DNA of 51,556 nt from Candidatus Micrarchaeia archaeon (GCA_038880755.1 JAVZRC010000005.1:1-51556), one strand, 5' to 3'; shown: positions 185 to 34,278, counted from the first letter of the stretch. The notes: generated by a model from the letters alone, not told the origin. A program made the numbers and translations.

Positions 185-862
185 TTAACCCAATATTTGT
201 ACCCCAGAAGGAAGCTCAAATTCAGAATCTGGAATTTCTATGAATTCTATGTTTTTGTATTCTATAATTGTTTTTCCTTCTCCGCTTGTTGTTTCAACTC
301 TTATTGGAAAACCTTTTTCCTTCCAGATCCAAGATTTGATTTGCATTCCCTCCATAGAATACTGGACTATAACACAATCTTTTCCATCTATTATCTCATT
401 CCCTAATACAACTGGATTGTATTTTTCTATGCTTTCTGTTGGAGAGACATATTGATAAGAATAATCAAAATTTGTCCTAAATGCGATTCCCTGAGCCGGC
501 ATATAGCTGTACATTACCTTTTTATCTAAATCAACAATATTGATTATTTTCTCCCCTTCTGCAGAAATCTCTGATTTCATTTTGTTTCCTTTCAGCCAAA
601 CTGTTTGAGTAACTGAAGAACCCAAACCTGTCATCAACATATCGTATTTTACGCTTTTAATAGCTGAGGTTTTTGCAAATATGTCTGAAAGAGACGATAA
701 TGGTTTAGTTGTATCTTTTGTTTGTTCTGTTTGATTTAAAGTCTTATTAACCTCTTGAAAGTTCTGTTTAGTTTCGGTTTGACCTGTGCAACCGCTCATG
801 AATATTGCTCCAAAAATAAGAACAAATATAGCTAGAGCGGCTATCTTTATATTTGGATTCAA
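185..862 (-). CDS. lipoprotein, DUF4412/LolA-like beta-rich family
   Basis: Hydrophobic signal with lipobox MSGC; Thr/Gln-rich linker; beta-strand pattern ending WIWKEKGFPIRVE...IPDSEFELP; TTG start with GAGGTGA SD. Confidence 0.65.
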   Translation of the reverse strand: MNPNIKIAALAIFVLIFGAIFMSGCTGQTETKQNFQEVNKTLNQTEQTKDTTKPLSSLSDIFAKTSAIKSVKYDMLMTGLGSSVTQTVWLKGNKMKSEISAEGEKIINIVDLDKKVMYSYMPAQGIAFRTNFDYSYQYVSPTESIEKYNPVVLGNEIIDGKDCVIVQYSMEGMQIKSWIWKEKGFPIRVETTSGEGKTIIEYKNIEFIEIPDSEFELPSGVQILG

Positions 863-911
863 AAAATCACCTCTAGTAAAATATTAAAAAAATTGAAAAT
901 AAAGAAATAGA

Positions 912-1382
912 TTAGCTGTACTTAACCACTAATTCTATTTCCTGAGCTTTTGGAAAATCAGGCGAATTTGCAGGATAATATGTTATTTTAAGCTTTTCCT
1001 TAAATGTATCCTTTCCTGATTGTGGGTTTGAAACTATATTAGATGAAGCTGCACAATTTATAACAACAGTTGCACTGCTTCCAGGTGTTATTTGCACTGG
1101 CCCGCCAACCAATCTGTTTGTATTGTCTGTAGAAGGACAGTTTGCAGATGAGATGTTATATGTAACAGCACCCATATTCATTAAGCTTATCTTGACTTGA
1201 TGGGTTGAATTGATAGTATATTTGTCTTGTTCGCATTGAAAAGGTTGTGCAACCTGGCATGTTTCAATTTGCTGTGGTCTGACTAAATAGACAAGTATTG
1301 CCATTATAGCAAGGACTATCAAAATAGCCCAACCATATGTCATAAGATATTCCATTGCAGCTTGACCTTTTTTATTGAACAT
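912..1382 (-). CDS. type IV pilin-like protein with class III signal peptide
   Basis: N-terminus KKG|QAAMEYLMTYGWAILIVL (Q+1, E+5, hydrophobic helix). Confidence 0.85.
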   Translation of the reverse strand: MFNKKGQAAMEYLMTYGWAILIVLAIMAILVYLVRPQQIETCQVAQPFQCEQDKYTINSTHQVKISLMNMGAVTYNISSANCPSTDNTNRLVGGPVQITPGSSATVVINCAASSNIVSNPQSGKDTFKEKLKITYYPANSPDFPKAQEIELVVKYS

Positions 1383-3223: not shown

Positions 3224-3373
3224 GCGGGGTTCGCATAACCTGGTAGTGCGCTGGTCTCGAATAAACTCTTAGAAAGAGTTTAATCAGAAATTTTGGATTA
3301 AATTTCTAATAAGAAAGTTTATGAGAAAACCAGTTCCCGAAAGGGTATATGGGTTCGAATCCCATACCCCGCG
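3224..3373 (+). tRNA. tRNA-Ser(CGA) with 66-nt intron at canonical position 37/38 (intron 3262-3327)
   Basis: Acceptor stem GCGGGGT/ACCCCGC plus discriminator G; anticodon stem CTGGT/ACCAG with CT-CGA-A|A; long variable arm TTCCCGAAAGGGTA; T-arm ATGGG-TTCGAAT-CCCAT; CCA not encoded. Confidence 0.92.
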
Positions 3374-3396
3374 CTCTAATTAATCTGATTCTTAAA

Positions 3397-3909
3397 TCAC
3401 ATTAAAATATCCATAAATATGTGGCTCATATAACCAATGAAGCCCCATAGTGCAATTAATGCAGCTTCACCAAACCCAAAGAATGTTGCAGATGCAAACA
3501 CAAGGAAGGAATACATCAATGAAGCAAATATTCTATGCACTGGTCCTCTATGTCTTGGTATTAATGACTCGATGAAGGATGTAATTATTGATGCAATGAA
3601 AACAGAAATTGCAAACACAGTTAGAACCATGGCTAAACCTGCATTCAACAGGGCTGAAAGATCTGGATTTATACCGAAATAAGATGAAATTGAAAGATAA
3701 ATTATGGAAAGAAGAATTATCAGAACAAGCCATCTGAAAATTCCTCTAACCTTGCTTCTCTTATGATCTATGTCTGGTATTAATGAGCCAAGTACAGTTG
3801 CTATAACTGCTGCAAACAGTACATTTTGATCCATGCCTGAATTTATAATTATACATAATATACCAAGGATTATCCCTATAATTGAATGAATCATCCAATT
3901 GCTCATCAA
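3397..3909 (-). CDS. membrane-bound metal-dependent hydrolase (YdjM/LexA-binding-like)
   Basis: H near N-terminus, GSLIPDIDH, HRGPVH and SHIFMD motifs within TM helices. Confidence 0.8.
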   Translation of the reverse strand: MMSNWMIHSIIGIILGILCIIINSGMDQNVLFAAVIATVLGSLIPDIDHKRSKVRGIFRWLVLIILLSIIYLSISSYFGINPDLSALLNAGLAMVLTVFAISVFIASIITSFIESLIPRHRGPVHRIFASLMYSFLVFASATFFGFGEAALIALWGFIGYMSHIFMDILM

Positions 3910-6030: not shown

Positions 6031-6073
6031 TATTTTTACTTTTTCTCTCTTCTTTTCTAAAAAAATAATCCAT

Positions 6074-8209
6074 CTAATTTAGTCCACATGTTATTCTTGC
6101 AGCAACTGCGTCTTTAATTACTTGTAATATAGAACCGTCAAAATCATAAGTAGGGATTTGATTGCTTCCAGAAGGGGGCTGATAAGGTTGTGGCTGGGAA
6201 GGCTCTTGTGGCTCTGTTGGCGGTGTTGGTGGAGTAGGTAAAGAAGGCTGTTCAGGAATGGTAGGGGTTTGGTATTTACAATTCTGATCATATAACATAC
6301 AATAGAATATGTCTTGGTACTCTTTACATAATGTTAAATAAAGATCACAAAATGAAGATTGCATGTATACTGCTTTAGAATTACCTGAGGAAGGTTCTAA
6401 TAAAAGGACATATGATTCGATTTTTCTTTCCATATTTGCAGAAGGCGAATATTTGTTAAATTCTTGATTATAAGCTGATTCGCCTTTTATAGTTCCATAT
6501 GCAATGAAATATGCAAGAAACGTATCATCAATATTTGATTTCTTGTTTAATGTCTTATTTTGATAATATGCCATTGTCTCTGCAAGACAACATAAATCTC
6601 TTTGTTCCTGGTTTGAATAAACTTCGCATTTACTTCCGCAGTGTTTTTCATATTGCTGAAGCTGATTTTGATAATAACCTAATTTCTGAAGTGTTGCCAT
6701 GAAAAGAGAGGAATCTATAAAATACTTTGAAGCGAGGTTAGATATAAACTTATTATTCTTCTCGCAATAAGAGCTAAAGAAAGTACCTGGCCCAGCAGAT
6801 ATCTCGTAAAACAATTTTGAATTACATGTTTCATCTCTCTTTATTCTTTGTAAAGGCAATTCACTATAATTTTTTACATCACCGAACATAAACATTGTCG
6901 TTGATGATTTATACATTGCACAAGCTGAAGGCTTATCACCTTCTCTTGAGAAAATGCTGTATGTTGCAAAATTAAATGAGGAAGATGCAGGCGTATAATA
7001 AATAGAGCAGAAGAAGCCAATTGAATTATACATTTCAGAAGAAAGTTGTGACATATCTGGTGCTATTATTCCTATAACACCCGAAGAAACTAAATCTGGA
7101 ATAGACCTTATGAGATAATCATAAAATCTAGCTATAGATTCGTTCGTCCACTCGCATGTTTTCTTTGTATTGTTTCCCTCATTACCTTGCACAATTACTA
7201 TCACAGGTTTATGGTACTTCTCAGTGATGTTTTGGGCAAATGATTTGATGGAGTTAGTTTCGTTTTGAATGGAAATTAAAGGATCACAAGTGTCAAATGA
7301 ATTGAGATCTGCAGTAAATGCGATTACATCTATACTCTCCCAATCTAACAGATAGCTCTTATAATAATCTAATGTATCCAGATCACCATAATTTATTGTA
7401 GCTGTCACAATGCAATTTTTACAACTTGTGTTTATAGAATAAAATGAACCTATTGGAGAGATTATGTTTGGATCAAATTTAGATTTATTAAACCCATATC
7501 CTGGTGATACAAATACAGGTCCTTCTCCTTCTATCTTCTTTACAAATGAACTCAAAGAGCTTTCAAGCCTTCCAAATTTATAGAATGGAATGGTGCCCGA
7601 ATTTAATATGCAATCATTCATATCAGTAAATCTTTTCTTAACACTGTCGCTCTCTATTTCTTTTGGAATAGATGACACGTCAATAAGATTAATTCCTAAA
7701 TGTCCATTACAGCTGGAAAATATTTCATCTCCAGCATAAGCACTATCTCCGATTCCTATCATTACTGGCTGTATAAACTTTGAACTTGAAGATGATGAAT
7801 CAGTTTGGGAAGATCTTGAACCTGACTGAGAAGTAGTTTCCAATCCCTTAGTAAGGCCTGTAAGGGAATTCAATCTCTTTAAGTCCTCTTCATTATCAAG
7901 ATTAAATTGTTGAAATGTACATTCTTTACCTGCAAGACTTGCAGTTTCTTTTGAAAAATATCCTTTTACTGAACTCCAAACTTTTATCCACCAAGAAGAA
8001 TATTCACACATCATTACTGTACAGTTGTTAAAAGATGGATGAATCTGTTGAATGTATTCGATTTGATCTTTTTTAATATATTGATCTATTGGTTCGATCT
8101 TTTTTATACAACCGAAAAAAAAGATGGATGTAAATGTAAGAACTAGAAATACAAGAAAAAATCTTGTGTTTTTAGAATTTAATGAATTTTTGAAGATACT
8201 TTCCACCAT
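6074..8209 (-). CDS. large secreted lipoprotein; possible degenerate GH-like TIM barrel and SLT-like region; Pro-rich linker
   Basis: Lipobox FFFGC after a hydrophobic helix; Ser-rich and Pro/Gln-rich segments; many Cys; domain guesses from motif resemblance only. Confidence 0.55.
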   Translation of the reverse strand: MVESIFKNSLNSKNTRFFLVFLVLTFTSIFFFGCIKKIEPIDQYIKKDQIEYIQQIHPSFNNCTVMMCEYSSWWIKVWSSVKGYFSKETASLAGKECTFQQFNLDNEEDLKRLNSLTGLTKGLETTSQSGSRSSQTDSSSSSSKFIQPVMIGIGDSAYAGDEIFSSCNGHLGINLIDVSSIPKEIESDSVKKRFTDMNDCILNSGTIPFYKFGRLESSLSSFVKKIEGEGPVFVSPGYGFNKSKFDPNIISPIGSFYSINTSCKNCIVTATINYGDLDTLDYYKSYLLDWESIDVIAFTADLNSFDTCDPLISIQNETNSIKSFAQNITEKYHKPVIVIVQGNEGNNTKKTCEWTNESIARFYDYLIRSIPDLVSSGVIGIIAPDMSQLSSEMYNSIGFFCSIYYTPASSSFNFATYSIFSREGDKPSACAMYKSSTTMFMFGDVKNYSELPLQRIKRDETCNSKLFYEISAGPGTFFSSYCEKNNKFISNLASKYFIDSSLFMATLQKLGYYQNQLQQYEKHCGSKCEVYSNQEQRDLCCLAETMAYYQNKTLNKKSNIDDTFLAYFIAYGTIKGESAYNQEFNKYSPSANMERKIESYVLLLEPSSGNSKAVYMQSSFCDLYLTLCKEYQDIFYCMLYDQNCKYQTPTIPEQPSLPTPPTPPTEPQEPSQPQPYQPPSGSNQIPTYDFDGSILQVIKDAVAARITCGLN

Positions 8210-8230
8210 AAGACCACTTGCTTGTTTGTT

Positions 8231-9997
8231 TCATTCATTTGCCTTTTCTTCCTCTTTTGGTTTCTCTTCTTCAGTTAACAATTCTTCAAGGCCTTCTATT
8301 GTAAATTCTGTCTCGTATTTGCCTGTCTTTATATTTTCTAAATAGGCTTTAGCACGTCTTACGATTTGATAATAAAGGAATCCGATTTGAATTGTAAGTT
8401 TATCTTTAGTTTTTTCATCATTTACCTTGACCGCAGATTTATATTGTCTAAGGAGATTTTGGAGTTTTTCAATCATATTTTCATATTCTTCTTTGGTCAT
8501 TGCAATTTGCAATATCTCCTTATTTATTCTTTTATATCTTTTTGGCTTAATTTTGTCGACTAGGCCTGTTATGAATTTGGTCTTTTCTATATAATCCATT
8601 TTTCTGATTTCACTTAAATTAATGTCTCCTTTCTTTATTAATGATTCTACGCTCGGTTGCATTTTATTGAATGCTGCGATAATCTTAGATATATACAATC
8701 TATCAAGTTCAACCTTAGCTTTAATTAACGGTTGAATCTGTTCATTAGTTATCTCACTTGGAACATCCTTAGGTACTAATACCTTGACTAATTCACCTAC
8801 CTTTTCATCTAATCCCTTCTCTAATGATTGTATATTTACTGTTTTTGTTTCTTTATCAATATGCTTTTTATCTTTTATTTCATTTAACAAAGTTCTCTCT
8901 GCCTCTACCAATGTATTTCCAAGAACTTCCGGATCTAGATTGGTTGCAGTTGTTCCTGCTGTAGCAGAGATTATCTTATTTGTTACTTCAATAGCGGATG
9001 AAAGTTCTTCTCTATACATTCTTAATCTGTCCTTAAGATCTTGGATTTCTATTCTCTTGCGGAACTTTTCATCTGTCAATTTTCCTTTTGGATATGATGG
9101 TTGTGATTTAAGTTTTTCCTCTGTCTCTTTCATTTGCTTAGCCGCCCATTCTTTTCTTTGTTGAAGCCTATTAAGAATACCCTTATCTGTAACAAACTTA
9201 ACTAAATTTATTGATGCTTTAGAGGGATTTATATATGCCTGTCTCTGAATTTCTGTCAGAATTTTCTTTTCCTCTTTAGTCTCTACATATCTGTCTAATG
9301 CAGATGTCGCAGAGATTATTTTTGTAGAAGCAGGTACAGAATAAACCATCAAAGGAAGTTGTGGCGCTTTTGACCATTTGATCTTTTGTGGCTTTGGATA
9401 TGAAGGTCCTCTTGTTTTTGGAGTTGTTATATCTAAAGAAGCTAATGGGTCTCTACCTGAAGCGTACAATGCTGCAATTAATGTTCCGATGATAAGGAAT
9501 ATAATGAGCCAACTTGCGTCCACAAGGTCCTTAAGTGGCGGAATTGGAAATAGTTTTGGAATTGAAATTGTAAATTGAGATGGGGCATAAGTTGAATTAC
9601 CTTCGAATATAAAGAGAATTGAGGGATTAGATTCGCTTATTCTTCCAATACAACTTCCTCTTCCATCCTGAGCTGTTATGAATTCACAAACATATTTTTT
9701 ATCTTCTTGGTTGGCTGGATTGATTGAATAAACCAATATTTTGGCAGAGAGTATTGGTGAATACTTAAAATTATTAATTATTGTTGATGGATCTACATTT
9801 CCAGTTTCTAACTTTTCCTTTAAGGTTGTTCTATCTTCAGGAACTGAAATAGAAACAAGGGTTGCAGAAAAATTGTAATTATTATTTGTCTGTTCTTTTG
9901 CATCTGCATATAATATATATGTTGGCATTTTTGCTTGTGCCGCAATTAGACTGATGATGAATGTGGAGAACATTAAGATTTTAAGTAGGTTGCGCAT
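8231..9997 (-). CDS. bitopic membrane protein: signal peptide, extracellular beta domain, one TM helix, long charged helical cytoplasmic region
   Basis: Signal ...LIAAQA; TM WLIIFLIIGTLIAALYA; Lys/Glu-rich coiled-coil-like C-terminal two thirds. Confidence 0.6.
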   Translation of the reverse strand: MRNLLKILMFSTFIISLIAAQAKMPTYILYADAKEQTNNNYNFSATLVSISVPEDRTTLKEKLETGNVDPSTIINNFKYSPILSAKILVYSINPANQEDKKYVCEFITAQDGRGSCIGRISESNPSILFIFEGNSTYAPSQFTISIPKLFPIPPLKDLVDASWLIIFLIIGTLIAALYASGRDPLASLDITTPKTRGPSYPKPQKIKWSKAPQLPLMVYSVPASTKIISATSALDRYVETKEEKKILTEIQRQAYINPSKASINLVKFVTDKGILNRLQQRKEWAAKQMKETEEKLKSQPSYPKGKLTDEKFRKRIEIQDLKDRLRMYREELSSAIEVTNKIISATAGTTATNLDPEVLGNTLVEAERTLLNEIKDKKHIDKETKTVNIQSLEKGLDEKVGELVKVLVPKDVPSEITNEQIQPLIKAKVELDRLYISKIIAAFNKMQPSVESLIKKGDINLSEIRKMDYIEKTKFITGLVDKIKPKRYKRINKEILQIAMTKEEYENMIEKLQNLLRQYKSAVKVNDEKTKDKLTIQIGFLYYQIVRRAKAYLENIKTGKYETEFTIEGLEELLTEEEKPKEEEKANE

Positions 9998-10083
9998 ATA
10001 ATCACTCTAAACACATATAATATAAATAATATAATTTCATTTTTATATTTATTGATTCTTATTGGTTTACTTTTGTTTCACTC

Positions 10084-11301
10084 TTATATTAGTTTAACCA
10101 AACCTTCTGCAAACTCTTGTATATCTGCATTTAATATAATTCCGAAAGATTTGATAAAAGTATACGTAATAACTAATGATAAAACTGGGAATATAAAACC
10201 GAATACGAACAATTCTCCGACCAAAGCATTAGTGCTATCGTTTATTTCCATTGCAATCGCACTTACGCCTTCGCCACTGATTTTTATTATCATTGATGTT
10301 ATTTTTATAGGTAATGATGGAATACTGGTTACAAGATCTTGTATGCAAGAAAGTTGCATTGTTCCAGATGTCTCTAAAAATGAAATCTGTGATGAACCTT
10401 GCATTCCCATTGTCAGAAACAAGCTGAATGTGATAGGATAAATAAAATACAGGCCTAAAGCTATAGAAATAAACATATTACCTATAGATCGAACAAATGG
10501 GAAGCCTCTTAATACAATTCCTATTGGAAGAAATACAGTGAGCATTGTTTGCTGGATAAATGAAAGAAGATGCAATTGGAAATACAACGAGTATATTAAA
10601 TATGATAAATTAGACATTGCTCTATTTAAGGAAGTAAGAAATACACTGAAAGATGCGACCTTTAATTGCGAAGTAAATGTATTTCCAATAAAGAAACTAC
10701 TTATAACTTTAAATATAGAACCTACTTTAGACTGTGTTTCCACATTTTCTTTTTTGTCTATTCCAGTAAACACGAAGAATGGATATGCAATACAGAAAAC
10801 ATCTTGATATCTTTTGATTGCAAGCTTATTTAGTGAGGATAGATAAAAATCTGCGACTGAAAATGGAGAATAACCTTTTTGAGAAACATAATCTATAAGT
10901 TTTTCAGTGCCTGGCAGATTTATATTTTTAGATAGCAAAAATACAAATTCGCCTGACTTTGATGCCAGTACATCCACTACTGCTATTATAAAAACCGCCA
11001 ATAAAAGAGTGGATAACGCATAAAGAAACTCATATTTTGCAAATTTTTCAAGATCAGAAGACTGAAATAATTTAGAAAACATATAAGCAAGGGCTGCGAA
11101 CAAAAAAGAGATAGAAACCGCGATTAAGGCAATTAATTGCCAGGGAAATTCGGAAGAAGACCATACTTTATTGAACTCTTGTCCTGGACCAGATGTTTGA
11201 GCAAATATAATAGACACTAATAGTAAAAGAAAGAAAGCTGCTATTCTGAAGTTTGATTCCTTTGATTCATTTGTAAATGCTTTTTTATTGTAATTTTTCA
11301 T
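10084..11301 (-). CDS. polytopic membrane protein, paralog 6 of tandem family (CedA/VirB6-like?)
   Basis: Shared motifs ALAYMFSKLFQSSDLEKFAKYE, FLPIGIVLRGFPFVRSIGNMFISIALGLYFIYP, C-terminal GIILNADIQ...LVKLI. Confidence 0.7.
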   Translation of the reverse strand: MKNYNKKAFTNESKESNFRIAAFFLLLLVSIIFAQTSGPGQEFNKVWSSSEFPWQLIALIAVSISFLFAALAYMFSKLFQSSDLEKFAKYEFLYALSTLLLAVFIIAVVDVLASKSGEFVFLLSKNINLPGTEKLIDYVSQKGYSPFSVADFYLSSLNKLAIKRYQDVFCIAYPFFVFTGIDKKENVETQSKVGSIFKVISSFFIGNTFTSQLKVASFSVFLTSLNRAMSNLSYLIYSLYFQLHLLSFIQQTMLTVFLPIGIVLRGFPFVRSIGNMFISIALGLYFIYPITFSLFLTMGMQGSSQISFLETSGTMQLSCIQDLVTSIPSLPIKITSMIIKISGEGVSAIAMEINDSTNALVGELFVFGFIFPVLSLVITYTFIKSFGIILNADIQEFAEGLVKLI

Positions 11302-11334
11302 ACCTTCACTTCCTTTTTTTATTATTTTTAAAAT

Positions 11335-12903
11335 TTATATTAACCTCCATATGCTTGCTGTCTCAATCTCCTGTCCAAGAGCTTGAGATAGATCTGATGT
11401 TGCCTTCGCTATTATAGTTAGATTTAATAACAGCAATACTATACCTACTATAAATGTTATCACTATATCCTTAAATAGATAATCAAATGCCTTATCTATA
11501 TAGGTCTTTCCTTCGTTATCTCCAAAATTAAATCTAGATAGCTCTAACTCTGTTATTATTTGCTGCACATCTTCAGGAATTATTGAACTAAATGCTGAAA
11601 CGCTAGCATAAATGGAATTTTGATCCTCTTCTGTAATTATACTTCTTCCACATACTTTATTTGGTGCTATACCTATACATCTTCTTGATATGCATTCTTC
11701 ATCAAACATACATGATTCTCCTATCTTCTTTAAGCTAGTACATGTTCTTACACCTGAAATATCTGTCTTGCAAAATGAAAGTACACAATCACTATCAAAG
11801 ATGCAGTTTTGACCAGGAAGCTTACCTAATTCACATCTTTTACTTGATGAATTTAAAATTAAACCTTTGCAGCAAGGTAATCCATCCGAAATAAATCCTT
11901 CAGAAACGCATTTTATACATCTTTTAGATGATGAATCACAAAATCCTGATTGACACTCAAAATCATTTCTACAGATCTCTCCTTCCTTTTTCATCGGATT
12001 ACATATTTTAATTCCAAGTGTAGAATTGTACTCACAGATATTAGAATAACAATCAGAATTATCCTGACATTGTAAACTGAGTGCTTTTATCGGTTCAGAT
12101 ATATAACTTCCGACTAACAAATTATTAAGTAATAATACTATTGGAATAAAGATGTATAATGCAATTCCTATGCCTAATAAACCTCCACCGAATTTTCTAA
12201 ATGGATATATCGACCTAAAAACTATTCCTATTGGAATAAAGAACTTTAAAGAAATTAAAGGCATGATTAACAAAATATTTATCATTACAAGAATAGCTAT
12301 ATATGCACTTGCAAGGGAAGAGAATATCAAAAGTGATGCATCTGAAAAATATGAGATTGGATTTATTAGCGCTCCAAATAATCCGCTCTTTGCTATTGAA
12401 CTGTCTAACTTGTATTCAAATGAAGAGATTAATGATAAGGAAGAGCCTAATGCGCCCATTTTTATAGCTGCACTTATTATATAATTCTTAACAGAAGATA
12501 AATAATTATAAGATGCAATATAAGGTGGATCATTCAAATTAAATATGGAAGAAATTATATCGCTGCACATAAATGTCTGAACTAGGAATACTAAGAAGAT
12601 TATAATGGCAAGAGTGAAAAAGAGCTGAAACATTTCTTCTTTAGCCTTATTTATAAATGAAGAATCTATTATCGATCCATAAAGATACAAGCCTGCAATA
12701 AAAACTGCACTCAACAATAATCCTATCGCTGATAAAACTCTCCAATCATCACTAGTAAGTGTAAATTCGCATGCCTCCTTATTCAAATCTTCTATTTTCT
12801 TAGCCTTTTCTATTTGCGTTGACTGGGCAAAAATAGATGTAACTAGAAATAGAAATAAAAAGATGAATATTTTTTTACTTTTTATTAAATCGATTCCTTC
12901 CAC
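11335..12903 (-). CDS. polytopic membrane protein, paralog 5, with 20-Cys extracellular repeat insert
   Basis: Shared motifs AGLYLYGSIIDSSFINKAKEE, FIPIGIVFRSIYPFRKFGGGLLGIGIALYIFIP, ALGQEIETASIWRLI; GTG start. Confidence 0.7.
   Translation of the reverse strand: MEGIDLIKSKKIFIFLFLFLVTSIFAQSTQIEKAKKIEDLNKEACEFTLTSDDWRVLSAIGLLLSAVFIAGLYLYGSIIDSSFINKAKEEMFQLFFTLAIIIFLVFLVQTFMCSDIISSIFNLNDPPYIASYNYLSSVKNYIISAAIKMGALGSSLSLISSFEYKLDSSIAKSGLFGALINPISYFSDASLLIFSSLASAYIAILVMINILLIMPLISLKFFIPIGIVFRSIYPFRKFGGGLLGIGIALYIFIPIVLLLNNLLVGSYISEPIKALSLQCQDNSDCYSNICEYNSTLGIKICNPMKKEGEICRNDFECQSGFCDSSSKRCIKCVSEGFISDGLPCCKGLILNSSSKRCELGKLPGQNCIFDSDCVLSFCKTDISGVRTCTSLKKIGESCMFDEECISRRCIGIAPNKVCGRSIITEEDQNSIYASVSAFSSIIPEDVQQIITELELSRFNFGDNEGKTYIDKAFDYLFKDIVITFIVGIVLLLLNLTIIAKATSDLSQALGQEIETASIWRLI
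11650..12069 (-). repeat. Cys-rich protein repeats: four C-x5-C-x4-C-x(7-10)-C modules around a central C..CC..C module
   Basis: CQDNSDCYSNIC, CRNDFECQSGFC, CIFDSDCVLSFC, CMFDEECISRRC; duplicated (D/N)SSSKRC. Confidence 0.85.
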
Positions 12904-12989
12904 GTAATCACACTCTATAATCGCTCATTACAATCAATTTTTATTATTAATTTGATCATTTCTAGTTAAATTTAAGATATACAAATTAC

Positions 12990-14132
12990 TCATAAATATT
13001 TAATTAAATCTCCAAACGATACATCTGAACCTAGCAAGGAACCTAATTCCCTTGCTATAACAACTGTTATAGTAAAATCTATGATCGGTATTAATGTAAA
13101 TAATATAAATGCGAATGCGGCTTCTGTAAATATTATAAATACAAAATTAAAAATATACTTGAAAGCAGAAAAACTGGCTGTGATAATGTTCTTTGAAGAT
13201 TTTTGCAAGCATTCTAAAAACTTGCCTGAAAATGTATCTCCGATTGTACATCCTTCTATACCTATTTGTTTATCCATTCTTGCACCTAAAATATCTCTCC
13301 AACTTTTATTCCCTGATAATCCTTCATTAAGTACTGCATCTACCATATTCTGGTTCAATAAGTAAGTCAATGGAAATACAATGTATAATGAAATTGCGAG
13401 AACTATCAAAAGATTTGCCACTTTTCTACTAAAGTTGAATATTCTAAAGAATAGACCGAATGGAAGAATGAAAACAAACGCGACATTCTCTACAAACTCT
13501 AAGAAATAAATTTGCATGGAATTAAGGGCATAAACAACACCAAATCCACTTATAGCTAGATCTATTATTTTTGTAATAGGATCAAAAAATGCATCCATAA
13601 CTCCACCGATGTCTATAGATACTACACTAAATACTGAAACAAACTTTGATATAAAATTGCTAATATCTGGGAGTGATGAAATACTCATACTCGTTACTAT
13701 TTTTCCTCCACCCAAAGCTGCTTTTTCTGAGATTAATCCACCCATAATAAACGTGAGATAGAACCTTACAGAATAAAGATAGCTCTTTGCATTTTCAATT
13801 GCTGGATTTGCTGCATTTGATGAAGAAAGATTGTATGCTTCAAAAACTATACTCTCTATTTTTAAAATTCCAAATATCAAAAAAACTATAAAGGAAAGTA
13901 CTATTATTTGATATAGTTCATTATTTGCCCAAGCACTAAGTTCCTTTACTCCAAATACTTTTGATAGCATGAAACCTAAAGCTACCAATGTTAGAGATAG
14001 AATTATTGCTGCTAAAACTGTTAATTCCCAAGGTACAGATCTTAGTGTTGGAATGTTTGTCTGCGGAACTTCTGCTGTTAAAATTGGAACTAAAAGAAAT
14101 AAAGCAAATACAACTGTTTTATTTAGATCCAT
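12990..14132 (-). CDS. polytopic membrane protein, paralog 4
   Basis: Shared motifs ALGFMLSKVFGVKELSAWANNELYQ, ILPFGLFFRIFNFSRKVANLLIVLAISLYIVFP, LLGSDVSFGDLIKYL. Confidence 0.7.
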   Translation of the reverse strand: MDLNKTVVFALFLLVPILTAEVPQTNIPTLRSVPWELTVLAAIILSLTLVALGFMLSKVFGVKELSAWANNELYQIIVLSFIVFLIFGILKIESIVFEAYNLSSSNAANPAIENAKSYLYSVRFYLTFIMGGLISEKAALGGGKIVTSMSISSLPDISNFISKFVSVFSVVSIDIGGVMDAFFDPITKIIDLAISGFGVVYALNSMQIYFLEFVENVAFVFILPFGLFFRIFNFSRKVANLLIVLAISLYIVFPLTYLLNQNMVDAVLNEGLSGNKSWRDILGARMDKQIGIEGCTIGDTFSGKFLECLQKSSKNIITASFSAFKYIFNFVFIIFTEAAFAFILFTLIPIIDFTITVVIARELGSLLGSDVSFGDLIKYL

Positions 14133-14155
14133 ATTCTCACTATATTACTTTTCAA

Positions 14156-15343
14156 TCAAATTAACTTGGATAATCCCGCTATATCTATATCTCCACCAAG
14201 GAATGAAGAAAATTCCTTTATGAATACCACTAGTGAATAAATTGAAATTATAAATGGAACAAACATCCACATGGACAAGAAAGCTATATTATCTAGAAAA
14301 CCATTAGGGAGAATTGAACTAAAGAACATATAAGATATAAAATCAGTGCTAACTTCCTGCCCTCCCATATTTCCTTTAATGTTTACAATCATGTTGAATA
14401 AATTTATTGAAAATTGAGCCACTTTTTTCACTGAATCAACTATACTTGTGTAGCTAGATTTGCTTGAAAGCCATTCAACCTGATTTTCTTGAATACCTGA
14501 ATCCAGACTTGGAAGATTAGTAACAAATCCGCTGTCATCAGACAAATATATTACATTAGAATTTGGATTTGGTGAAACAATTGAAAATGAAAGCAATAGC
14601 AAGAAAGGATAAACAAAGAATGAACCAATTGCTATGCTTAATAACAATCCTCCAACACCTCTCAATAGAGATATGGAGCGCATTGCAACTCCTGCAATCA
14701 AAAACATTGGAAATAATGCAACTGAACTAAATACTAGGAAAAGTTGATTTACTTTTATAAGTATAAGTAAATTCGTTCCGAATGTAATGAAGTTTTTATA
14801 AATATCTAATATAGGGGTTAATCCGGAAAATGGAGAAACTTGAAAACCTAATAATTGCATCTTGAAAGATGAAATCACACTAATCCAACCTATAGTACTG
14901 ATCTTGTTTCCTAAATAGAAACGAATAATGTCGTAATACTGACCTAATAATGAATTAGCTACTTCTATATGGCAATATCCTTGCTTGCACTCTTTTTGAA
15001 CAGATTCAAATTTTACTCCGCTTTGCGATCTTATTGACTCTGCAGTTATTTTTAATGTATTAAATGTACAGCTATCGCCACTGCATTGAAAATCTAGATT
15101 TGGCGCAATTAACGGAATTAGATTTAATGTAATATTATTAATTATAGCTAGAAATATGAATAAAGAGCCTATTATAAGAGCTGATGCAAAAACCTGATAT
15201 ATCTCATTTTGAGCCCATTTCTTAAAATTATCATTCTCTAAAGCCCTTGCTACCATATAGATTAAAGAAATGAATGTAAGAGTTATGAATAGGATTAAAA
15301 CTGCAACAGGAACCCACCATTCAAATAATATTTCAAATACCAT
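14156..15343 (-). CDS. polytopic membrane protein, paralog 3
   Basis: Shared motifs SLIYMVARALENDNFKKWAQNEIYQ, FLIAGVAMRSISLLRGVGGLLLSIAIGSFFVYP, FLGGDIDIAGLSKLI. Confidence 0.7.
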   Translation of the reverse strand: MVFEILFEWWVPVAVLILFITLTFISLIYMVARALENDNFKKWAQNEIYQVFASALIIGSLFIFLAIINNITLNLIPLIAPNLDFQCSGDSCTFNTLKITAESIRSQSGVKFESVQKECKQGYCHIEVANSLLGQYYDIIRFYLGNKISTIGWISVISSFKMQLLGFQVSPFSGLTPILDIYKNFITFGTNLLILIKVNQLFLVFSSVALFPMFLIAGVAMRSISLLRGVGGLLLSIAIGSFFVYPFLLLLSFSIVSPNPNSNVIYLSDDSGFVTNLPSLDSGIQENQVEWLSSKSSYTSIVDSVKKVAQFSINLFNMIVNIKGNMGGQEVSTDFISYMFFSSILPNGFLDNIAFLSMWMFVPFIISIYSLVVFIKEFSSFLGGDIDIAGLSKLI

Positions 15344-15366
15344 TTAATCACATCAGACTATCCATC

Positions 15367-16269
15367 CTATTTTATTTCAGAAAGAAACGTTGCGAATGAT
15401 GAAATAAATGCGATTGTTATAGTAAGATTAAGTGCTGGAAGCACAAGTGCTTGAGGGAATAATAATGAAAATTCATCAAAATACTTAAATATATTGATAA
15501 TATCAGATGACAACTTAAATGTTTCAATTGGATTAACTTGAACTGAAACTAGTTCGCCAAAGTTAGGCTCAATTATTTTATATACCGAATAATTCATAAC
15601 ATACATAAGTGGAAACACGACGTAAAGGCCGAATGCGAATGCTATCAAATAAGAACCTCCTTTCCTTAATCCTGGAATTGCTCTTAGAATCATCCCTATT
15701 GGAAGTATTAGCGTCAAAGCAAATGCTTCTGCTAACTGAATGAATACCATCTGCGCCTGCAAACTTCCTATTAGTATTTGAAATATTCCTGTAAATATGC
15801 CGAGCATCTTACTAAGCGGTTTTAATATAGCTGTTGGTTTGACTTTTACATCTGCCTGTTCTAAAAGTTTAGAAGATTTGCCAATTTTGAACTTGCTTTC
15901 AACGGAGGATATTGAATCCAAAATAAGAGAGGAAGCCCAAACTCTTTGTATGGCTGGTATTCCTTTCTTATAAATAAGTGTATTAAGATAATCATATGAT
16001 GCTGAAAATTGATCTCCGTAACCTATTACATCTTTAACTACGTATGGAGTAACCTGACATACAATTGAAGAAAGGCCAGCAACACCTATTACTATTAAAA
16101 ATGAAATGAAAAACTCTGAAAGTTCTTTCTTTGCCAATGACTCGAGCTCACTCTTTGTAAGTATTCTTCCTAAAGCATAAAGAAAAGCAATCAATGAGAT
16201 TGTAAGTGCTGACGCTGCCCCTATATACATCCATACATCAAATACAGCCTGACAAGTACTTACAACCAT
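15367..16269 (-). CDS. polytopic membrane protein, paralog 2 (minimal member)
   Basis: Shared motifs AFLYALGRILTKSELESLAKKELSE, ILPIGMILRAIPGLRKGGSYLIAFAFGLYVVFP; lacks the terminal LGG tail. Confidence 0.7.
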   Translation of the reverse strand: MVVSTCQAVFDVWMYIGAASALTISLIAFLYALGRILTKSELESLAKKELSEFFISFLIVIGVAGLSSIVCQVTPYVVKDVIGYGDQFSASYDYLNTLIYKKGIPAIQRVWASSLILDSISSVESKFKIGKSSKLLEQADVKVKPTAILKPLSKMLGIFTGIFQILIGSLQAQMVFIQLAEAFALTLILPIGMILRAIPGLRKGGSYLIAFAFGLYVVFPLMYVMNYSVYKIIEPNFGELVSVQVNPIETFKLSSDIINIFKYFDEFSLLFPQALVLPALNLTITIAFISSFATFLSEIK

Positions 16270-16283
16270 TTAATCCCTCATAT

Positions 16284-17954
16284 TCAAACCAATCTGCCTA
16301 ATTCAATTATCTTTGTTTCCCCACCTAATGTTGTTGATACAGATCTAAATGTAGAGATTGTCACAAATATAATTACTATGAAAACAAATATTGTAAATAC
16401 ATATGGAAACAGAATATTAGGAAGTACATCTGTTAAACCATAAAATGCCATTCCTGCAGCATATGGGGTAGCGAGATAATTTGTTACAGTGTAACCTGTT
16501 ATCTGACCAACTGCTCTTGCCGCGCCCTCTAATCCTCCCATACTTGCAGTTACAGCTAGATTCAAATATGAAATGTCATTAATTGGAGATTCTCCTGCAG
16601 TCCCCTTTAACTTGCACCATAAAATTGACCATAAGTTTTCTTGACATGGATCACCTAAATAAAACCTAACCTCTTCTGAAACAATTCTAACTTCCCTTTC
16701 TCTTATTTGCTTAGTAACCAATATTATTGAATGGACTTTATTGTTTGGAAATATATTCTCGTTATTTAATAAGTATTCAATGCTTCCGGATGAATTAACT
16801 TCTCCTTTCTGAATCTTTCTATAGCACTTTGAAACCTCCATTGTTTCCTCTCTACATGGCTCATCCGGACTTGGACAGAGTGAATAGGTTGTTCTTTCAG
16901 TTATTTTCCAATACATATAATCTTCTGGAGGTGGTTCTGGATTTTGGGGATTTTTTGATTCATAAATTGAACCCACTCCATTACATGAAACATCTCCCCA
17001 AATTGAGTAATTTAAAGGTGTGAAAACCTCCCAAAGAAATCTATCTGATTGATTTAAATAATATCTTCCCGCATCAGGCAAAAGTCTGAAAAACGGAATT
17101 GATACACTTTCGGGCTTATAATCTAATTGTCCTGCAGATATTGCAGCCTTTGTATCATCATACATCTTAGATGCAAATGCTAATGTCAATGGATATACTA
17201 TAAATAATGTTAACGACAATGCAATCAAGGTTGAACCTGCTTTTCTAGTAATCGGAAATGTACGAAGAAGAACCCCTGTTGGGAACAGTACTGGGAGCGC
17301 TGTATATTGTATGAAAAATAAAAGTTCTTTCTGTACAAAGAATGCTAGTAAGAAAGGCACTAATCCAGATAAAATGTTTGAAATAATATTTGAAATCATG
17401 CTGAATGGTGCCCCTAGACCTAATTCTAATTTAAGACCCGTGATTGCTTTTGCAAGATTAGCTATTCCAAAACCACCGAGACCTCCAGCTATTACACCAA
17501 CTCCGCCTGTTGTTAGTCCAGCAATCGACCCAACCATTGTTAGAAGCCAGGATAGTATCTTTGATAGATCAATCGTAAGTGTGCTTGCCCCACTATAAAC
17601 TATATTAAGCCCAAAAAGATAACTATATGCGTATGTCAAATCATCCTCAACCTTATCTAAAAAACTTTTTGCTAAAAAGAATGGATCACTGCCCGCATAC
17701 GCGATTGTTATAGATGTTATTGTCATAAGTAATGGGACTGTTAATAATAAAATTAATGCAGTAACTATAAACTCACTTAATTCTTTTCTTGCCCATCCTT
17801 TCAATTCGTTAGATTGAAATGCAGAAGAGAGCATCCAGGCCAAAGCACTTAAAGCTGCGGATAGAAGGAGTGCCATAATTGAAGTTGCAAACCAATCAGT
17901 GGTAAAAACTGTCCTTATTGATTGATCAACCATTTCCTGTAAAGTTATTACCAT
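16284..17954 (-). CDS. polytopic membrane protein, paralog 1, with Gly-zipper segment and ~200-aa extracellular insert
   Basis: Shared motifs ALAWMLSSAFQSNELKGWARKELSE, LFPTGVLLRTFPITRKAGSTLIALSLTLFIVYP, TLGGETKIIELGRLV. Confidence 0.7.
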   Translation of the reverse strand: MVITLQEMVDQSIRTVFTTDWFATSIMALLLSAALSALAWMLSSAFQSNELKGWARKELSEFIVTALILLLTVPLLMTITSITIAYAGSDPFFLAKSFLDKVEDDLTYAYSYLFGLNIVYSGASTLTIDLSKILSWLLTMVGSIAGLTTGGVGVIAGGLGGFGIANLAKAITGLKLELGLGAPFSMISNIISNILSGLVPFLLAFFVQKELLFFIQYTALPVLFPTGVLLRTFPITRKAGSTLIALSLTLFIVYPLTLAFASKMYDDTKAAISAGQLDYKPESVSIPFFRLLPDAGRYYLNQSDRFLWEVFTPLNYSIWGDVSCNGVGSIYESKNPQNPEPPPEDYMYWKITERTTYSLCPSPDEPCREETMEVSKCYRKIQKGEVNSSGSIEYLLNNENIFPNNKVHSIILVTKQIREREVRIVSEEVRFYLGDPCQENLWSILWCKLKGTAGESPINDISYLNLAVTASMGGLEGAARAVGQITGYTVTNYLATPYAAGMAFYGLTDVLPNILFPYVFTIFVFIVIIFVTISTFRSVSTTLGGETKIIELGRLV

Positions 17955-18107
17955 TATATCACATATTAAGTGCTGTTTTTGATAATTACATTTTATACAT
18001 TAGTAAAATAGAATTAAATTAATTTCTATTTATATATAAAAGTAGAAATAAACAAGATTGCAAGAAAGTATTAAAAATTAAATGGAATATTAAATTAAGG
18101 TGAACAT

Positions 18108-20556: not shown

Positions 20557-21702
20557 ATGCCAATAACTATTTTCCTTGAAGATGGAAAGTTTAAAGTGAA
20601 AAATCCTGAAGACTATGAAGCATTAAGAAGATCTTACTACGGCGAAAAAGGCAAAGGAGAAATAGTTATAACTCCAGAGGAGGCAATGTATCTAATGGAA
20701 GTTAGAAATGCTGTTTGCATAGAAAATGGAAAGGAAATCACCTTCTCGCAGATAGCAGATAGATTCAATAAGGAAAAGATGTTTGCAGAATACATGACAT
20801 TTCGCGATTGGAGAGAAAGAGGATTGATAATTAAAAAATATAGGAAAGAAGGCAAATATGAGAAGAATCCGACTGTGAAATATCCAAGCAAGGAAACAAA
20901 ATTCCCAAAAATTCAAGCTGAAGCAATATTCTTCAAAGACGATAAAATGGCAATATTAGAAAATGAAGAGATTGGAAAGGAGCTTTATAATAATTATTGG
21001 ATAGGACAATATGGTTCATACAAGGCTGAAGGAAGAGGAAAGTTCCTAAAGTTAGATAAGTTTGAGACATATTTTCTTGTTAAGAATTGTGGGCTGAAAC
21101 TGATTAATTTAACTGAAAAGGAATTGGAAAAAATATTGAAGGAAGAAAACGATTTCGAATCAATGTATAATGTTTATGAAGACTGGAGAATGAATGGATT
21201 TGTAGTGAAGACTGGCTTCAAGTTCGGAACCCATTTCAGAATATATTTCCCTGGTGCATTGCCAGGAAAAGGAAAAGATTGGACTCATTCAAAGCATGTT
21301 CTCCATGTATTTCCAAGAGAAAAAAGAATGATAATTGCTGAATGGGCAAGAGCAATAAGGGTTGCACATGGGGTAAGAAAAACTTTCATACTTGCAATAC
21401 CTGGAAAGAAAACAAAATTAGAAAAAGGAATGATAAGCTTCTTATTATATCATAGAAAAAACAACAATATTGAAACACCTGAAAGGGACAGCCCCTCCTT
21501 TGCGCTTGTATCGCTTAGCGAGGATGAGATGATCGGAGGGAATGAACTCGCATCTGCAATAGAAGAAGCAAAGGAGATTGGATTGGATGTCATGCTTGGA
21601 ATAGTGGATAGGGAGACCTCTGTCACATATTACAGAGTTAAAAGAATAAACTTGCCTAAAAGCAAGTATGAATACTATGAAATAGAATGGGCACAGCCGT
21701 AA
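20557..21702 (+). CDS. endA: tRNA-intron endonuclease, three-unit epsilon2-like architecture
   Basis: KTGFKFGTHFRIY, HSKH and VAHGVRK catalytic Y/H/K motifs; N-terminal partial unit (TPEEAMYL; FRDWRERG); GSYKAEGR loop. Confidence 0.9.
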   Translation: MPITIFLEDGKFKVKNPEDYEALRRSYYGEKGKGEIVITPEEAMYLMEVRNAVCIENGKEITFSQIADRFNKEKMFAEYMTFRDWRERGLIIKKYRKEGKYEKNPTVKYPSKETKFPKIQAEAIFFKDDKMAILENEEIGKELYNNYWIGQYGSYKAEGRGKFLKLDKFETYFLVKNCGLKLINLTEKELEKILKEENDFESMYNVYEDWRMNGFVVKTGFKFGTHFRIYFPGALPGKGKDWTHSKHVLHVFPREKRMIIAEWARAIRVAHGVRKTFILAIPGKKTKLEKGMISFLLYHRKNNNIETPERDSPSFALVSLSEDEMIGGNELASAIEEAKEIGLDVMLGIVDRETSVTYYRVKRINLPKSKYEYYEIEWAQP

Positions 21703-32543: not shown

Positions 32544-34238
32544 TTAAAAAGTAATAAATTCTCTTCCAAAATTAAAAAGAAATATAACCAAAGGAAGTAA
32601 AATAATAAAGTAGCCGATAAAAGTCCTCAGTCTTCCTTCCTGCATAGCTATAAATATTGAAGATAATAGTACATAGATGATAATATAAATTTGAGCTGCG
32701 TTGGTTGCAACTGTTAATATCTCATTTCTATTTTGTAAAGTTGTAACATCGCTATTTAATGGTTGAATGTTTGATATTAAATTTAGAATTACAGCTAGAA
32801 TAATAGGAACGAATATACAACCACCAATAAGAATAGTATATTTCTGAAGTGCTAAAGAAGATGCTTGTTCTTTTTTAAGCATGTTTAATTCAAATATATC
32901 TTCTGCAGTTTCTTTTATTCCTTTGTGAACATCTCTTCCTGTTTTGTAACATTGTATAAGAAGTGAAATTACTCTGTCTAATAAAAGTGAACTGTTCCTA
33001 TCTTTCATATTAAGAAGCGCGTGGTTTACACTAATTCCGACTTTTATCTGCCTTGATGCTTTTCTAAATTCATCAGATAAAGATCTGTATCCTGCATTGG
33101 CTATGTTTTCTATTATTCTTTCCATTGGAATCCCTAGCTCAAGTGTAGCAGCATACATTAATGCATCTGGAAGATGTTGTTCTATCTCATTTGCTCTTAT
33201 CTCAATCAGCCATAATAGGATGAAATATACCAATAACGGAAGAAGAAGGAAAAGTAATGAATAGTAGTTTATTTCAAAGTAAAATATAATGGTTAGCGAA
33301 AATGAAATCAAAAATAAGTAAGTTATAAACGTTCTAAATTTTAGATTTATTTTCATATTTTTAAGTTGTTCGTCTAGCATTATTTCTTCTTTTTTAGATA
33401 GAAATTTTTCTGATAGATTTGAAAGAATTGTGGGTGTTGTAGATTTTATATATACTATTAATAAGATATTTATAAGTGGGAATAAAACAACAAATGTGAA
33501 CCATATATCGCTTGGTGAAGTTTCCATATCTAAATATGTACTTGCTACTACAATGTATGCTAAAAACATTGTTGGTGCTATAGACGAAATTGCTATAAAC
33601 ATAAGACTTAGAAAACTAAGTTTTGCAGAGAATTCTTTAAATTTAAATCTTTGTGCATGAATTAATTCATCTGCGCTATGTTTTAATTCAGTTCCATCCA
33701 TGCCTTCTAAATAAACATGTATTAACTGGACCATTAATTTCTTAACTATCTGAGAATCTACTCGCTCGGTTACTTGTCTAAGTGCGTCTGGTATTGAAGT
33801 ACCGCTGTCTATCATATTAATTACTTTTTTGAATTCAGCTGAACATTTATAATTCGAGTTTGCTATATTTTCAAGAGCAGTTTCAAATGGTACCTTCATG
33901 TTTAATTGTATACCAATTGACCTTATTGCAATCGGTAGATCTGATTCTATTTCTGACGCTCTTCGCTTTGCTATATAATATGGAAGCTTCTTAAGAATAA
34001 GAAAATATGCGATAGATAACATAAAGAAAATAAGTCCTAAACTGAGGTAATCAAATGCAGTACTGAGAGTAGATATAAAATATGTAGAAATAAAACTTAA
34101 AATGATTGAAAATAAAAAAGAATAAGTCAAATATTTGGAAGACGAAATCTCGATATCGGCACGATATAAACTTAATACTATTTCTTTTTCCAGTGATTTG
34201 AAATATTCTTTAATCATATTTTGAAATCTGTTTTTCAA
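32544..34238 (-). CDS. type II secretion/type IV pilus platform protein (TadC/ArlJ-like, two T2SSF domains)
   Basis: Two repeats of R..EIE.(D/H)LP.A...; G.S...AL; multiple TM helices; directly downstream of a pilus ATPase. Confidence 0.88.
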   Translation of the reverse strand: MKNRFQNMIKEYFKSLEKEIVLSLYRADIEISSSKYLTYSFLFSIILSFISTYFISTLSTAFDYLSLGLIFFMLSIAYFLILKKLPYYIAKRRASEIESDLPIAIRSIGIQLNMKVPFETALENIANSNYKCSAEFKKVINMIDSGTSIPDALRQVTERVDSQIVKKLMVQLIHVYLEGMDGTELKHSADELIHAQRFKFKEFSAKLSFLSLMFIAISSIAPTMFLAYIVVASTYLDMETSPSDIWFTFVVLFPLINILLIVYIKSTTPTILSNLSEKFLSKKEEIMLDEQLKNMKINLKFRTFITYLFLISFSLTIIFYFEINYYSLLFLLLPLLVYFILLWLIEIRANEIEQHLPDALMYAATLELGIPMERIIENIANAGYRSLSDEFRKASRQIKVGISVNHALLNMKDRNSSLLLDRVISLLIQCYKTGRDVHKGIKETAEDIFELNMLKKEQASSLALQKYTILIGGCIFVPIILAVILNLISNIQPLNSDVTTLQNRNEILTVATNAAQIYIIIYVLLSSIFIAMQEGRLRTFIGYFIILLPLVIFLFNFGREFITF

Positions 34239-34278
34239 ATATTCACCTTAAACTATTAGCACAGTAAAATAATAGATG

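Follow-up and report, generated by a model that had tools for sequence, protein, structure and literature searches.

The 51,556-nucleotide (nt) stretch analyzed here, from Candidatus Micrarchaeia archaeon (GCA_038880755.1 JAVZRC010000005.1:1-51556) and hereafter called the window, contains a cluster of eight co-oriented minus-strand genes, G1 to G8, that runs from position 17954 to position 6074 in the open reading frame (ORF) listing (Table 1). G1-G6 encode polytopic membrane proteins of a single family, and G7 and G8 encode two large accessory proteins. From G1 to G8 the genes are separated by 14, 23, 23, 86, 33, 86 and 21 nt; these values follow from the ORF coordinates and are exactly those given in a preliminary description of this DNA. 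The window has a GC content of about 32% and is a segment of an archaeal chromosome, with housekeeping genes that encode a tRNA-intron endonuclease, a wyosine radical-SAM enzyme, SRP54, PolB, TruD, RNA cyclase, a proteasome subunit and FttA. Its nearest relatives are metagenome-assembled genomes labelled Candidatus Micrarchaeota or Micrarchaeia, which places the host, initially described as a DPANN archaeon, within the Micrarchaeota.

G1-G6 are diverged paralogs, as the preliminary description had proposed: every one of them is linked to the set by BLASTP (pairwise E-values of 3e-16 for G1-G4, 4e-15 for G1-G6, 1e-12 for G2-G4 and 3e-12 for G4-G6), and their relatedness is far above chance. The three motifs that had been read in them by eye are recovered in a MAFFT alignment of the six proteins. 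W21, A55 and E58 of motif (i) are invariant, as are G227, R231, R237 and P255 of motif (ii), whose G-x3-R-x5-R element lies in the short loop between transmembrane (TM) segments 3 and 4 and whose proline lies in TM4. Motif (iii), a terminal TM segment followed by LG(G/S/Q)(D/E)...L..L(I/V), had been assigned to most members and is present in five of the six; G2 lacks it. Hydropathy indicates five TM segments per core. The signal-peptide-like N-termini of G4-G6, together with the Arg/Lys-rich short TM1-2 and TM3-4 loops, lead us to predict that the N-terminus lies outside the cell and the C-terminus inside, with two large variable outside loops, in keeping with the topology originally suggested. 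In this orientation, the invariant residues would sit at the cytoplasmic face or close to it, and divergence would be concentrated in the exposed parts of the proteins. Outside loop 2 of G5, for example, holds a cysteine-rich, repeat-like insert of roughly 190 amino acids (aa). The C-terminal tail of G1 reads LGGETKIIELGRLV.

Table 1. Features of the gene cluster and of its surroundings in the window
Feature	Position	Strand	Description
G1	16284-17954	-	Position-1 paralog, 556 aa; five-TM core plus outside loop 2 of about 240 aa
G2	15367-16269	-	Position-2 paralog, 300 aa; minimal core; sole member without the LGG tail
G3	14156-15343	-	Position-3 paralog, 395 aa; tail LGGDIDIAGLSKLI fits the position-3 signature
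G4	12990-14132	-	Position-4 paralog, 380 aa; signal-peptide-like N-terminus
G5	11335-12903	-	Position-5 paralog, 522 aa; GTG start; signal-peptide-like N-terminus
G6	10084-11301	-	Position-6 paralog, 405 aa; signal-peptide-like N-terminus
G7	8231-9997	-	588 aa; bitopic: signal peptide, ectodomain of about 130 aa, one TM segment, coiled coil
G8	6074-8209	-	711 aa; lipobox-like FFGC-IKK, many invariant cysteines
Candidate archaeal promoter	17955..18045	-	AT-rich, upstream of G1; two TATA-like boxes, as read from the sequence
Distal TATA-like box	about 18040-18027	-	tttatatataaata
Proximal TATA-like box	about 17999-17990	-	gtataaaatg
Candidate archaeal terminator	6059..6068	-	T-run ttattttttt, a few bases past the G8 stop codon
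86-nt gap ahead of G5	12904-12989	-	
86-nt gap ahead of G7	9998-10083	-	
T2SSE/T2SSF gene pair	32544-35667	-	ATPase of 462 aa (E 8e-39), platform protein of 564 aa
tRNA-intron endonuclease gene	20557-21702		
Rfam tRNA match	3224-3373	+	150 nt, 41 bits

The family to which G1-G6 belong is large and has so far escaped annotation. An exhaustive profile search of 1.84 billion cluster representatives identified 3008 member proteins at E<=1e-3 and 2200 at E<=1e-10. None of G1-G8 has a meaningful match in Pfam, NCBIfam, PHROGs or PADLOC, none of the 82 members in our family alignment matches any Pfam family at E<=0.01, and sequence searches of the PDB with the family profile, G7 and G8 returned nothing; the unrelated known family that the preliminary description had allowed for was thus found in none of these resources. 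Two low-scoring similarities were discarded, that of G5 to Dickkopf_N (E 0.033, below the Pfam cut-off) as compositional noise and that of the G7 coiled coil to GajB (E 4e-4) as coiled-coil noise. In the literature we found no description of either the family or the cluster. When we searched GTDB species genomes for motif (ii) with a degenerate DNA pattern built by hand, for which about 4 chance matches are expected, at least 118 stretches were found. Among the matches listed, 115 of 118 are labelled as Micrarchaeota-lineage or simply as 'archaeon', under the names Micrarchaeia, Anstonellales, 'ainarchaeum', Burarchaeum, Fermentimicrarchaeum and 'archaeon'. A 3.4-kb contig labelled 'Patescibacteria' (L115) encodes a genuine family member and is probably a mis-binned Micrarchaeota fragment; a Streptomyces stretch was rejected as a chance match, and one further stretch among the matches listed is labelled Rhodospirillales.

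Most loci retrieved from GTDB are fixed 8-kb blocks. Wherever a cluster is complete, exactly six family members stand in tandem (seven of seven clusters: the window, L001, L123, L128, L002, L088 and L200). Their sizes in gene order are listed for the window in Table 1, and are 551/292/390/383/542/396 aa in L001, 547/290/397/387/502/364 in L123, 430/303/453/443/364/369 in L128, 457/311/371/474/358/380 in L002, 399/292/428/387/366/322 in L088 and 344/341/462/324/345/348 in L200. Orthologs of G1, with 44-49% identity, stand first in syntenic clusters, and the conservation of the cluster in relatives bears out what the preliminary description had proposed to look for by synteny. Position 2 has a short core of about 300 aa and is tail-less wherever its C-terminus was read. 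Global identity does not resolve positional orthology for positions 3-6 of distant clusters, and we used C-terminal tail signatures in its place. The position-3 tail, GGD[IV][DE]IAGL, is common to G3, L002, L045 and L200, and the position-6 tail, (G/N)ADI.E..GL..LI, which is two residues longer than the tails at other positions, is common to G6 (LNADIQEFAEGLVKLI), L002, L009, L041 and L200; these position-specific tails persist even where clusters are no more than 20-30% identical. A fixed number of members in a fixed order, with conservation particular to each position, argues for distinct subunits of one complex, and the sequences thus point to G1-G6 as six non-redundant subunits.

One relative, Candidatus Fermentimicrarchaeum limneticum (CP058998.1; L045, 3178-5886), encodes a tail-less, position-2-like paralog extended at its N-terminus by about 560 extracellular aa with repeated Ig/HYR-like segments, which suggests that an adhesin function has been fused to the core.

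In the model of Agrobacterium tumefaciens VirB6, the chain starts outside, crosses the membrane in five or so TM segments with a large extracytoplasmic loop in the middle, and ends inside; the topology predicted for the paralogs agrees with it, judging by the five hydrophobic segments, the large TM2-TM3 loop, the signal-peptide-like N-termini of G4-G6 and the basic short loops. An AlphaFold2 model of G2, built from the 82-sequence alignment, contains six long helices (pLDDT 88, pTM 0.82). When this model was compared with the PDB using Foldseek, the top four matches were TrwI/VirB6 chains of R388, the best with E 0.03, probability 0.99, TM-score 0.34 and about 317 aligned columns; in the BFVD, the top match was an annotated phage-encoded TrbL (E 0.05, probability 0.99, TM-score 0.37). 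The order of helices in the model, two hydrophobic, two amphipathic and three hydrophobic, is collinear with that published for VirB6, in which alpha1, alpha2 and alpha5-7 of seven long helices are hydrophobic (PMC9259494), and we count this collinearity in favor of a VirB6-like fold. A VirB6-like fold for G2 is, on the evidence of this model, plausible rather than proven, and by sequence G1-G6 are not recognizable as members of the VirB6/TrbL family. The original designation as VirB6-like therefore stands in so far as VirB6/TrbL is the top match in two structure libraries, with borderline E-values and TM-scores, and fails at the level of profiles.

A second line of evidence comes from the operons of relatives. 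We hunted for ATPases with a Walker-A pattern scan over all retrieved loci and checked the matches with Pfam. In L030, a family member is followed by a 238-aa protein with two TM segments (2-TM), the stop and start codons overlapping, and then by a 447-aa ATPase with DUF87/HerA, AAA_10, P-loop_TraG and TrwB_AAD_bind domains. L009 has at least three to four paralogs in tandem, then two 2-TM proteins and then a 514-aa ATPase of that kind, and the two loci are orthologous in both their ATPases (E 3e-23) and their 2-TM proteins (E 1e-8). The longest PDB alignment of the ATPase is to the VirB4-like protein 4ag5 (E 5e-7), and HerA chains are matched besides. L200, detected when 80 metagenomic loci retrieved through the ATPase were rescanned for the family motif, shows the full arrangement on one strand: six paralogs, two 2-TM proteins and a DUF87/AAA_10/P-loop_TraG ATPase. 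Thus, in L009, L030 and L200 the family shares an operon with a HerA/VirB4/TraG-class ATPase, the signature partner of VirB6-type proteins in type IV secretion, Ced and Ted systems (PMC9905601). The remaining Walker-A matches near family loci were set aside as housekeeping or chance (SRP54, Cdc48-type AAA, SMC, RNA ligase, adenylate-kinase-like and LeuRS).

Because the VirB6-like fold matches coincide with linkage to a VirB4-class ATPase, we classify the system as derived from type IV secretion systems (T4SSs). We propose that the G1-G6 cluster encodes a translocation or contact apparatus of T4SS/Ced-like type, strongly diverged and fixed in the chromosome, whose six subunits would be VirB6-like, a reading that we regard as evenly poised between right and wrong. 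A host-contact or uptake role for such an apparatus would be attractive, because the Micrarchaeota lifestyle is host-dependent. The CedA/VirB6-like contact or transfer apparatus of the preliminary description thereby gains a top fold match to VirB6/TrbL and an ATPase in relatives, but neither a profile link nor a pilin.

Several observations weigh against this proposal. In the PDB match list, TTYH channels and designed helical bundles follow close behind TrwI, no Foldseek match of the G2 model reaches E<=0.001, and the TM-scores are only 0.34-0.37; spurious structure matches do arise with long-helix membrane proteins. Aligning the family profile to a 23-sequence TrwI profile with hhalign gave a probability of 0.2% and an E-value of 0.29, the TrwI profile being narrow (>=50% identity), and Pfam TrbL (PF04610) is matched neither by G1-G6 at E<=1 nor by any of the 82 aligned members. 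The ATPase linkage is confined to the three loci named above, most GTDB loci being 8-kb blocks, and the strict family motif is absent from 79 of the 80 metagenomic loci of the ATPase family. No HerA/VirB4-class ATPase is encoded in the 51.5-kb window, where nearly all ORFs of >=110 aa were scanned, nor does any ATPase flank the clusters of L001, L003, L123, L128 and L002. The preliminary suggestion that any motor is encoded elsewhere agrees with the window, and the three relatives add an in-operon motor of the HerA/VirB4/TraG class. Finally, no VirB2-like pilin was identified, nor is one apparent downstream of the L200 ATPase; with gaps of at most 86 nt, the window's cluster leaves no room for a small pilin gene inside it.

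Some further genes near family members in these relatives deserve mention. In L041 (49-2332), a full-length position-6-type member is followed after 17 nt by a T2SSE-family ATPase, which is PilB/VirB11-like and not HerA-like. Further ORFs were noted in L030, with positions 701-1171 (+) and 3355-3847 (-). Downstream of the ATPase operon lie a 65-aa ORF forming a two-TM hairpin, a 103-aa hydrophobic ORF and a second Walker-A protein of 748 aa, and close by is encoded a 156-aa protein whose signal peptide is of the archaeal class-III (type IV pilin) type; these may be pilin-like components. The gene after the L200 ATPase (11432-12223) encodes a 263-aa coiled-coil protein with a weak match to EAP30/Vps36, an ESCRT-II winged-helix family (E 7e-5, below the Pfam cut-off).

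The two accessory proteins of the window were described at first as large envelope proteins, which suits G8, mostly extracellular, better than G7, which is bitopic and largely predicted to be cytoplasmic. After its TM segment, G7 carries a conserved G(R/Q)(D/N)PLA.LD sequence and then about 400 aa of Lys/Glu-rich coiled coil that is predicted to be cytoplasmic; a Walker A motif or P-loop is absent. It has an ortholog in L001 (E 8e-64), and its TM region is conserved in a divergently transcribed 1020-aa protein of L002 (E 2e-7). No similarity was detected between G7 and the 2-TM partners of the ATPase, or between the G7-like protein of L002 and a 782-aa protein of L200. We also considered a MotA/ExbB-type 5:2 motor and dropped the idea: there are no such structural matches, and the Asp after the G7 TM segment is not conserved (it is Asn in L002). 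L002, a distant relative with higher GC, additionally encodes a giant 3739-aa protein that comes right after the six paralogs and a 248-aa protein and runs off the locus (11865-15261).

In G8, a beta/alpha region (residues about 170-385) is followed by a helical domain rich in cysteine (about 480-590), a linker rich in proline and a C-terminal helix that is conserved. It has no sequence-family match in the resources searched above, and its AlphaFold2 model has a mean pLDDT of 57, rising to 65-90 over residues 210-380. Foldseek matches this model to glycoside hydrolases of families GH1, GH2, GH5, GH26 and GH53 and to generic TIM barrels (E 1.2e-4 at best to 3e-3), and the modelled beta/alpha region may be a glycosidase-like TIM barrel. 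Clan GH-A enzymes are (beta/alpha)8 barrels whose catalytic glutamates follow strands 4 and 7; in G8, E344 follows a strand and is nearly invariant, and a second catalytic residue was not assigned. Only ten homologs of G8 are detectable, none demonstrably from a source outside Micrarchaeota. One of them, a 533-aa partial homolog with 56% identity (P0278), lies on a 1.6-kb contig labelled Fervidobacterium sp. in NCBI that looks like a mis-binned Micrarchaeota fragment. G7 and G8 precede the six paralogs in L123 and are absent near them in L128, where a downstream 785-aa protein was tried as an equivalent and is unlike either. The two proteins thus vary by lineage, which marks them as lineage-specific accessories to an invariant core of six.

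Among the alternatives to a T4SS-derived apparatus, the one that survives best is a lineage-specific complex for envelope biogenesis or maintenance, acting on the cell's own surface and unrelated to T4SSs. Such a complex could possibly anchor or assemble the surface layer (S-layer), handle glycans of the cell surface or organize the division site, and its resemblance to VirB6 would be that of a generic helical bundle. The setting of the cluster fits such a complex: it is chromosomal, phylum-wide and embedded among housekeeping genes, in conserved synteny with LeuRS, HSP20, ACT, YdjM and wyosine genes. The resemblance of G8 to a surface glycosidase-type barrel and the failure of the profile tests against VirB6 agree with it as well, and the mode of S-layer anchoring in a cultured Micrarchaeon is stated to be unknown (PMC8975820). 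Harder to accommodate are the top rank of VirB6/TrbL in two independent structure libraries and the presence in the L009, L030 and L200 operons of a HerA/VirB4/TraG-class ATPase with 2-TM partners, an ATPase being something that a passive anchor would not need. The outside loops, which vary and have Cys-rich or Ig/HYR-like parts, likewise suggest ligand binding rather than a uniform anchor. On balance we consider an envelope complex unlikely.

The six proteins might instead be paralogous adhesins, receptors or transporters of differing specificity, each acting singly or as a homo-oligomer, and the array would reflect duplication for diversity rather than one machine. Their outside loops are indeed strongly different (the Cys-rich module of G5, the long loop of G1, the Ig/HYR-like extension of one L045 paralog), and orthology at positions 3-6 of distant clusters is left unresolved by global identity. 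Diversifying adhesin arrays, however, normally vary in copy number, whereas here both the count of six and the order of the genes hold in clusters at 20-30% identity. Position-specific features (the short, tail-less position 2 and the tails of positions 3 and 6) are conserved as well, and the conserved residues lie on the predicted cytoplasmic face rather than in the putative ligand-binding loops. We therefore think separate action of the six proteins quite improbable. Slimmer still are the chances of canonical Ced/Ted-type DNA import, with G1-G6 as CedA/TedA homologs and DNA entering through a VirB2-like pilus: Ced and Ted, the known archaeal T4SS derivatives, do pair a VirB6-like channel with a VirB4-like ATPase and a VirB2-like pilin (PMC9905601), and the fold match and the in-cis VirB4/HerA-class ATPase of relatives would suit such a system, but Ced and Ted have one CedA/TedA and not six, no pilin candidate was found in either the window or L200, the window has no ATPase, and nothing points to DNA as cargo.

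How might a T4SS-derived apparatus built on G1-G6 work? We propose that the six proteins are ancient, non-redundant paralogs of a Micrarchaeota-wide five-TM family, and that they would form a hetero-oligomer, as their constant six-gene order and position-specific features suggest. The variable ectodomains would face outside. The cytoplasmic face would comprise the invariant Glu where TM2 starts, the R-x5-R loop that joins TM3 to TM4 and, at the C-terminus, the LGG(D/E)...L..LI tails, and this conserved surface may dock a cytoplasmic partner, either an ATPase module or G7. In related genomes the partner encoded in the same operon would be one or two 2-TM proteins and the HerA/VirB4/TraG-class ATPase. 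In the lineage of the window no ATPase module is found in cis, and the operon carries G7 and G8 instead; G7 is a possible scaffold, and G8 a putative surface lipoprotein, possibly an envelope- or glycan-remodelling enzyme with a role analogous to that of VirB1. A more specific version of this proposal, which we advance tentatively and think rather doubtful as a whole, is that the locus encodes a new class of T4SS-derived machine: a hetero-hexamer of six ancient VirB6-like paralogs, each carrying a different surface-exposed ectodomain, that would be driven by a VirB4/HerA-type ATPase tethered by new 2-TM adaptors. Fixed in the chromosome, this machine would be a translocon at the contact with the host, through which the symbiont takes up or exchanges macromolecules that it is unable to make.

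By what means DPANN archaea attach to a host and obtain material from it is an open question, and we know of no dedicated transfer machinery for Micrarchaeota. The G1-G6 locus offers a concrete, phylum-wide and testable candidate, with about 3,000 unannotated sequence clusters, six core subunits and accessory proteins that differ by lineage, some lineages adding a VirB4/HerA-class motor in the same operon. If our proposal is correct, it would extend the T4SS/Ced/Ted lineage to DPANN archaea with a hetero-oligomeric solution in place of the homo-pentamer of bacteria. It would also provide specific proteins to target by cryo-electron tomography, proteomics and antibody localization in cultures of Candidatus Micrarchaeum harzensis with Scheffleriplasma and of Mancarchaeum with Cuniculiplasma. 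For curators, G1-G6 are a clear candidate for a new protein-family model.

Other features of the window lie outside this argument. The 86-nt gaps ahead of G5 and G7 close with a similar sequence, tagagtg(t)gatta, immediately ahead of the start codon; it may be a common Shine-Dalgarno-like or regulatory element, or the gaps may hold internal promoters. A T2SSE-family ATPase and a T2SSF platform protein, encoded 15 kb from the cluster and adjoining genes for undecaprenyl-pyrophosphate synthase and a polysaccharide flippase, probably form a separate archaeal type IV pilus module. The Rfam tRNA match at 3224-3373 was not called by ARAGORN and is probably an intron-containing tRNA, a reading that fits the tRNA-intron endonuclease gene in the window.

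Compared with known systems, the family stands nearest to VirB6/TrbL, as represented by TrwI of R388. The top structural match of the G2 model covers its full length in both PDB and BFVD, helix order in the model is collinear, the core measures about 300 aa in both families, and both include 'extended' versions with large hydrophilic inserts (PMC12857230); relatives of the cluster also encode a VirB4-class ATPase in the same operon. There is no detectable sequence or profile similarity, VirB6 is the product of one gene and forms a homo-pentamer whereas six distinct paralogs in fixed order are found here, no homologs of VirB2, VirB5, VirB8 or VirB10 were recognized, and the locus is chromosomal and phylum-wide rather than borne on a plasmid or an integrative conjugative element.

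The DNA-import systems Ced, from Sulfolobales, and Ted, from Thermoproteales, combine a VirB6-like polytopic protein with a VirB4/HerA-like ATPase, and the divergence of their components is too great for BLAST (PMC9905601). They are archaeal, chromosomal, domesticated T4SS derivatives, a description that may extend to the G1-G6 system as read from its genes. Ced and Ted, however, have just one CedA/TedA besides a VirB2-like pilin (CedA1/TedC), in contrast to six paralogs with no pilin found and no ATPase in the window. Several tandem, diverged and often extended VirB6-type paralogs also occur in the T4SSs of obligate intracellular Rickettsiales, which like Micrarchaeota are host-dependent organisms with reduced genomes; Bao et al. 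reportedly described four VirB6 paralogs in Ehrlichia chaffeensis in 2009 (cited in PMC12857230). Those proteins are recognizable as VirB6 and belong to an otherwise canonical VirB/D4 system, whereas the G1-G6 family is unrecognizable by sequence and the rest of a canonical system is missing.

Finally, the T4SS of Patescibacteria (the candidate phyla radiation; PMC12102498) and the SPEARE proteins of nanohaloarchaea (PMC10266531) have been proposed or shown to be needed for a host-dependent lifestyle, and the giant SPEARE proteins contain a VirB4/TraG-like ATPase domain (PMC10266531). L002, too, encodes a giant protein, the one of 3739 aa after its six paralogs, of which the part within the locus was read. 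Although these systems belong to other lineages, have other architectures and in neither case include a six-paralog VirB6-like array, they share with the apparatus that we propose for Micrarchaeota the presence of T4SS-derived parts in ultra-small episymbionts.

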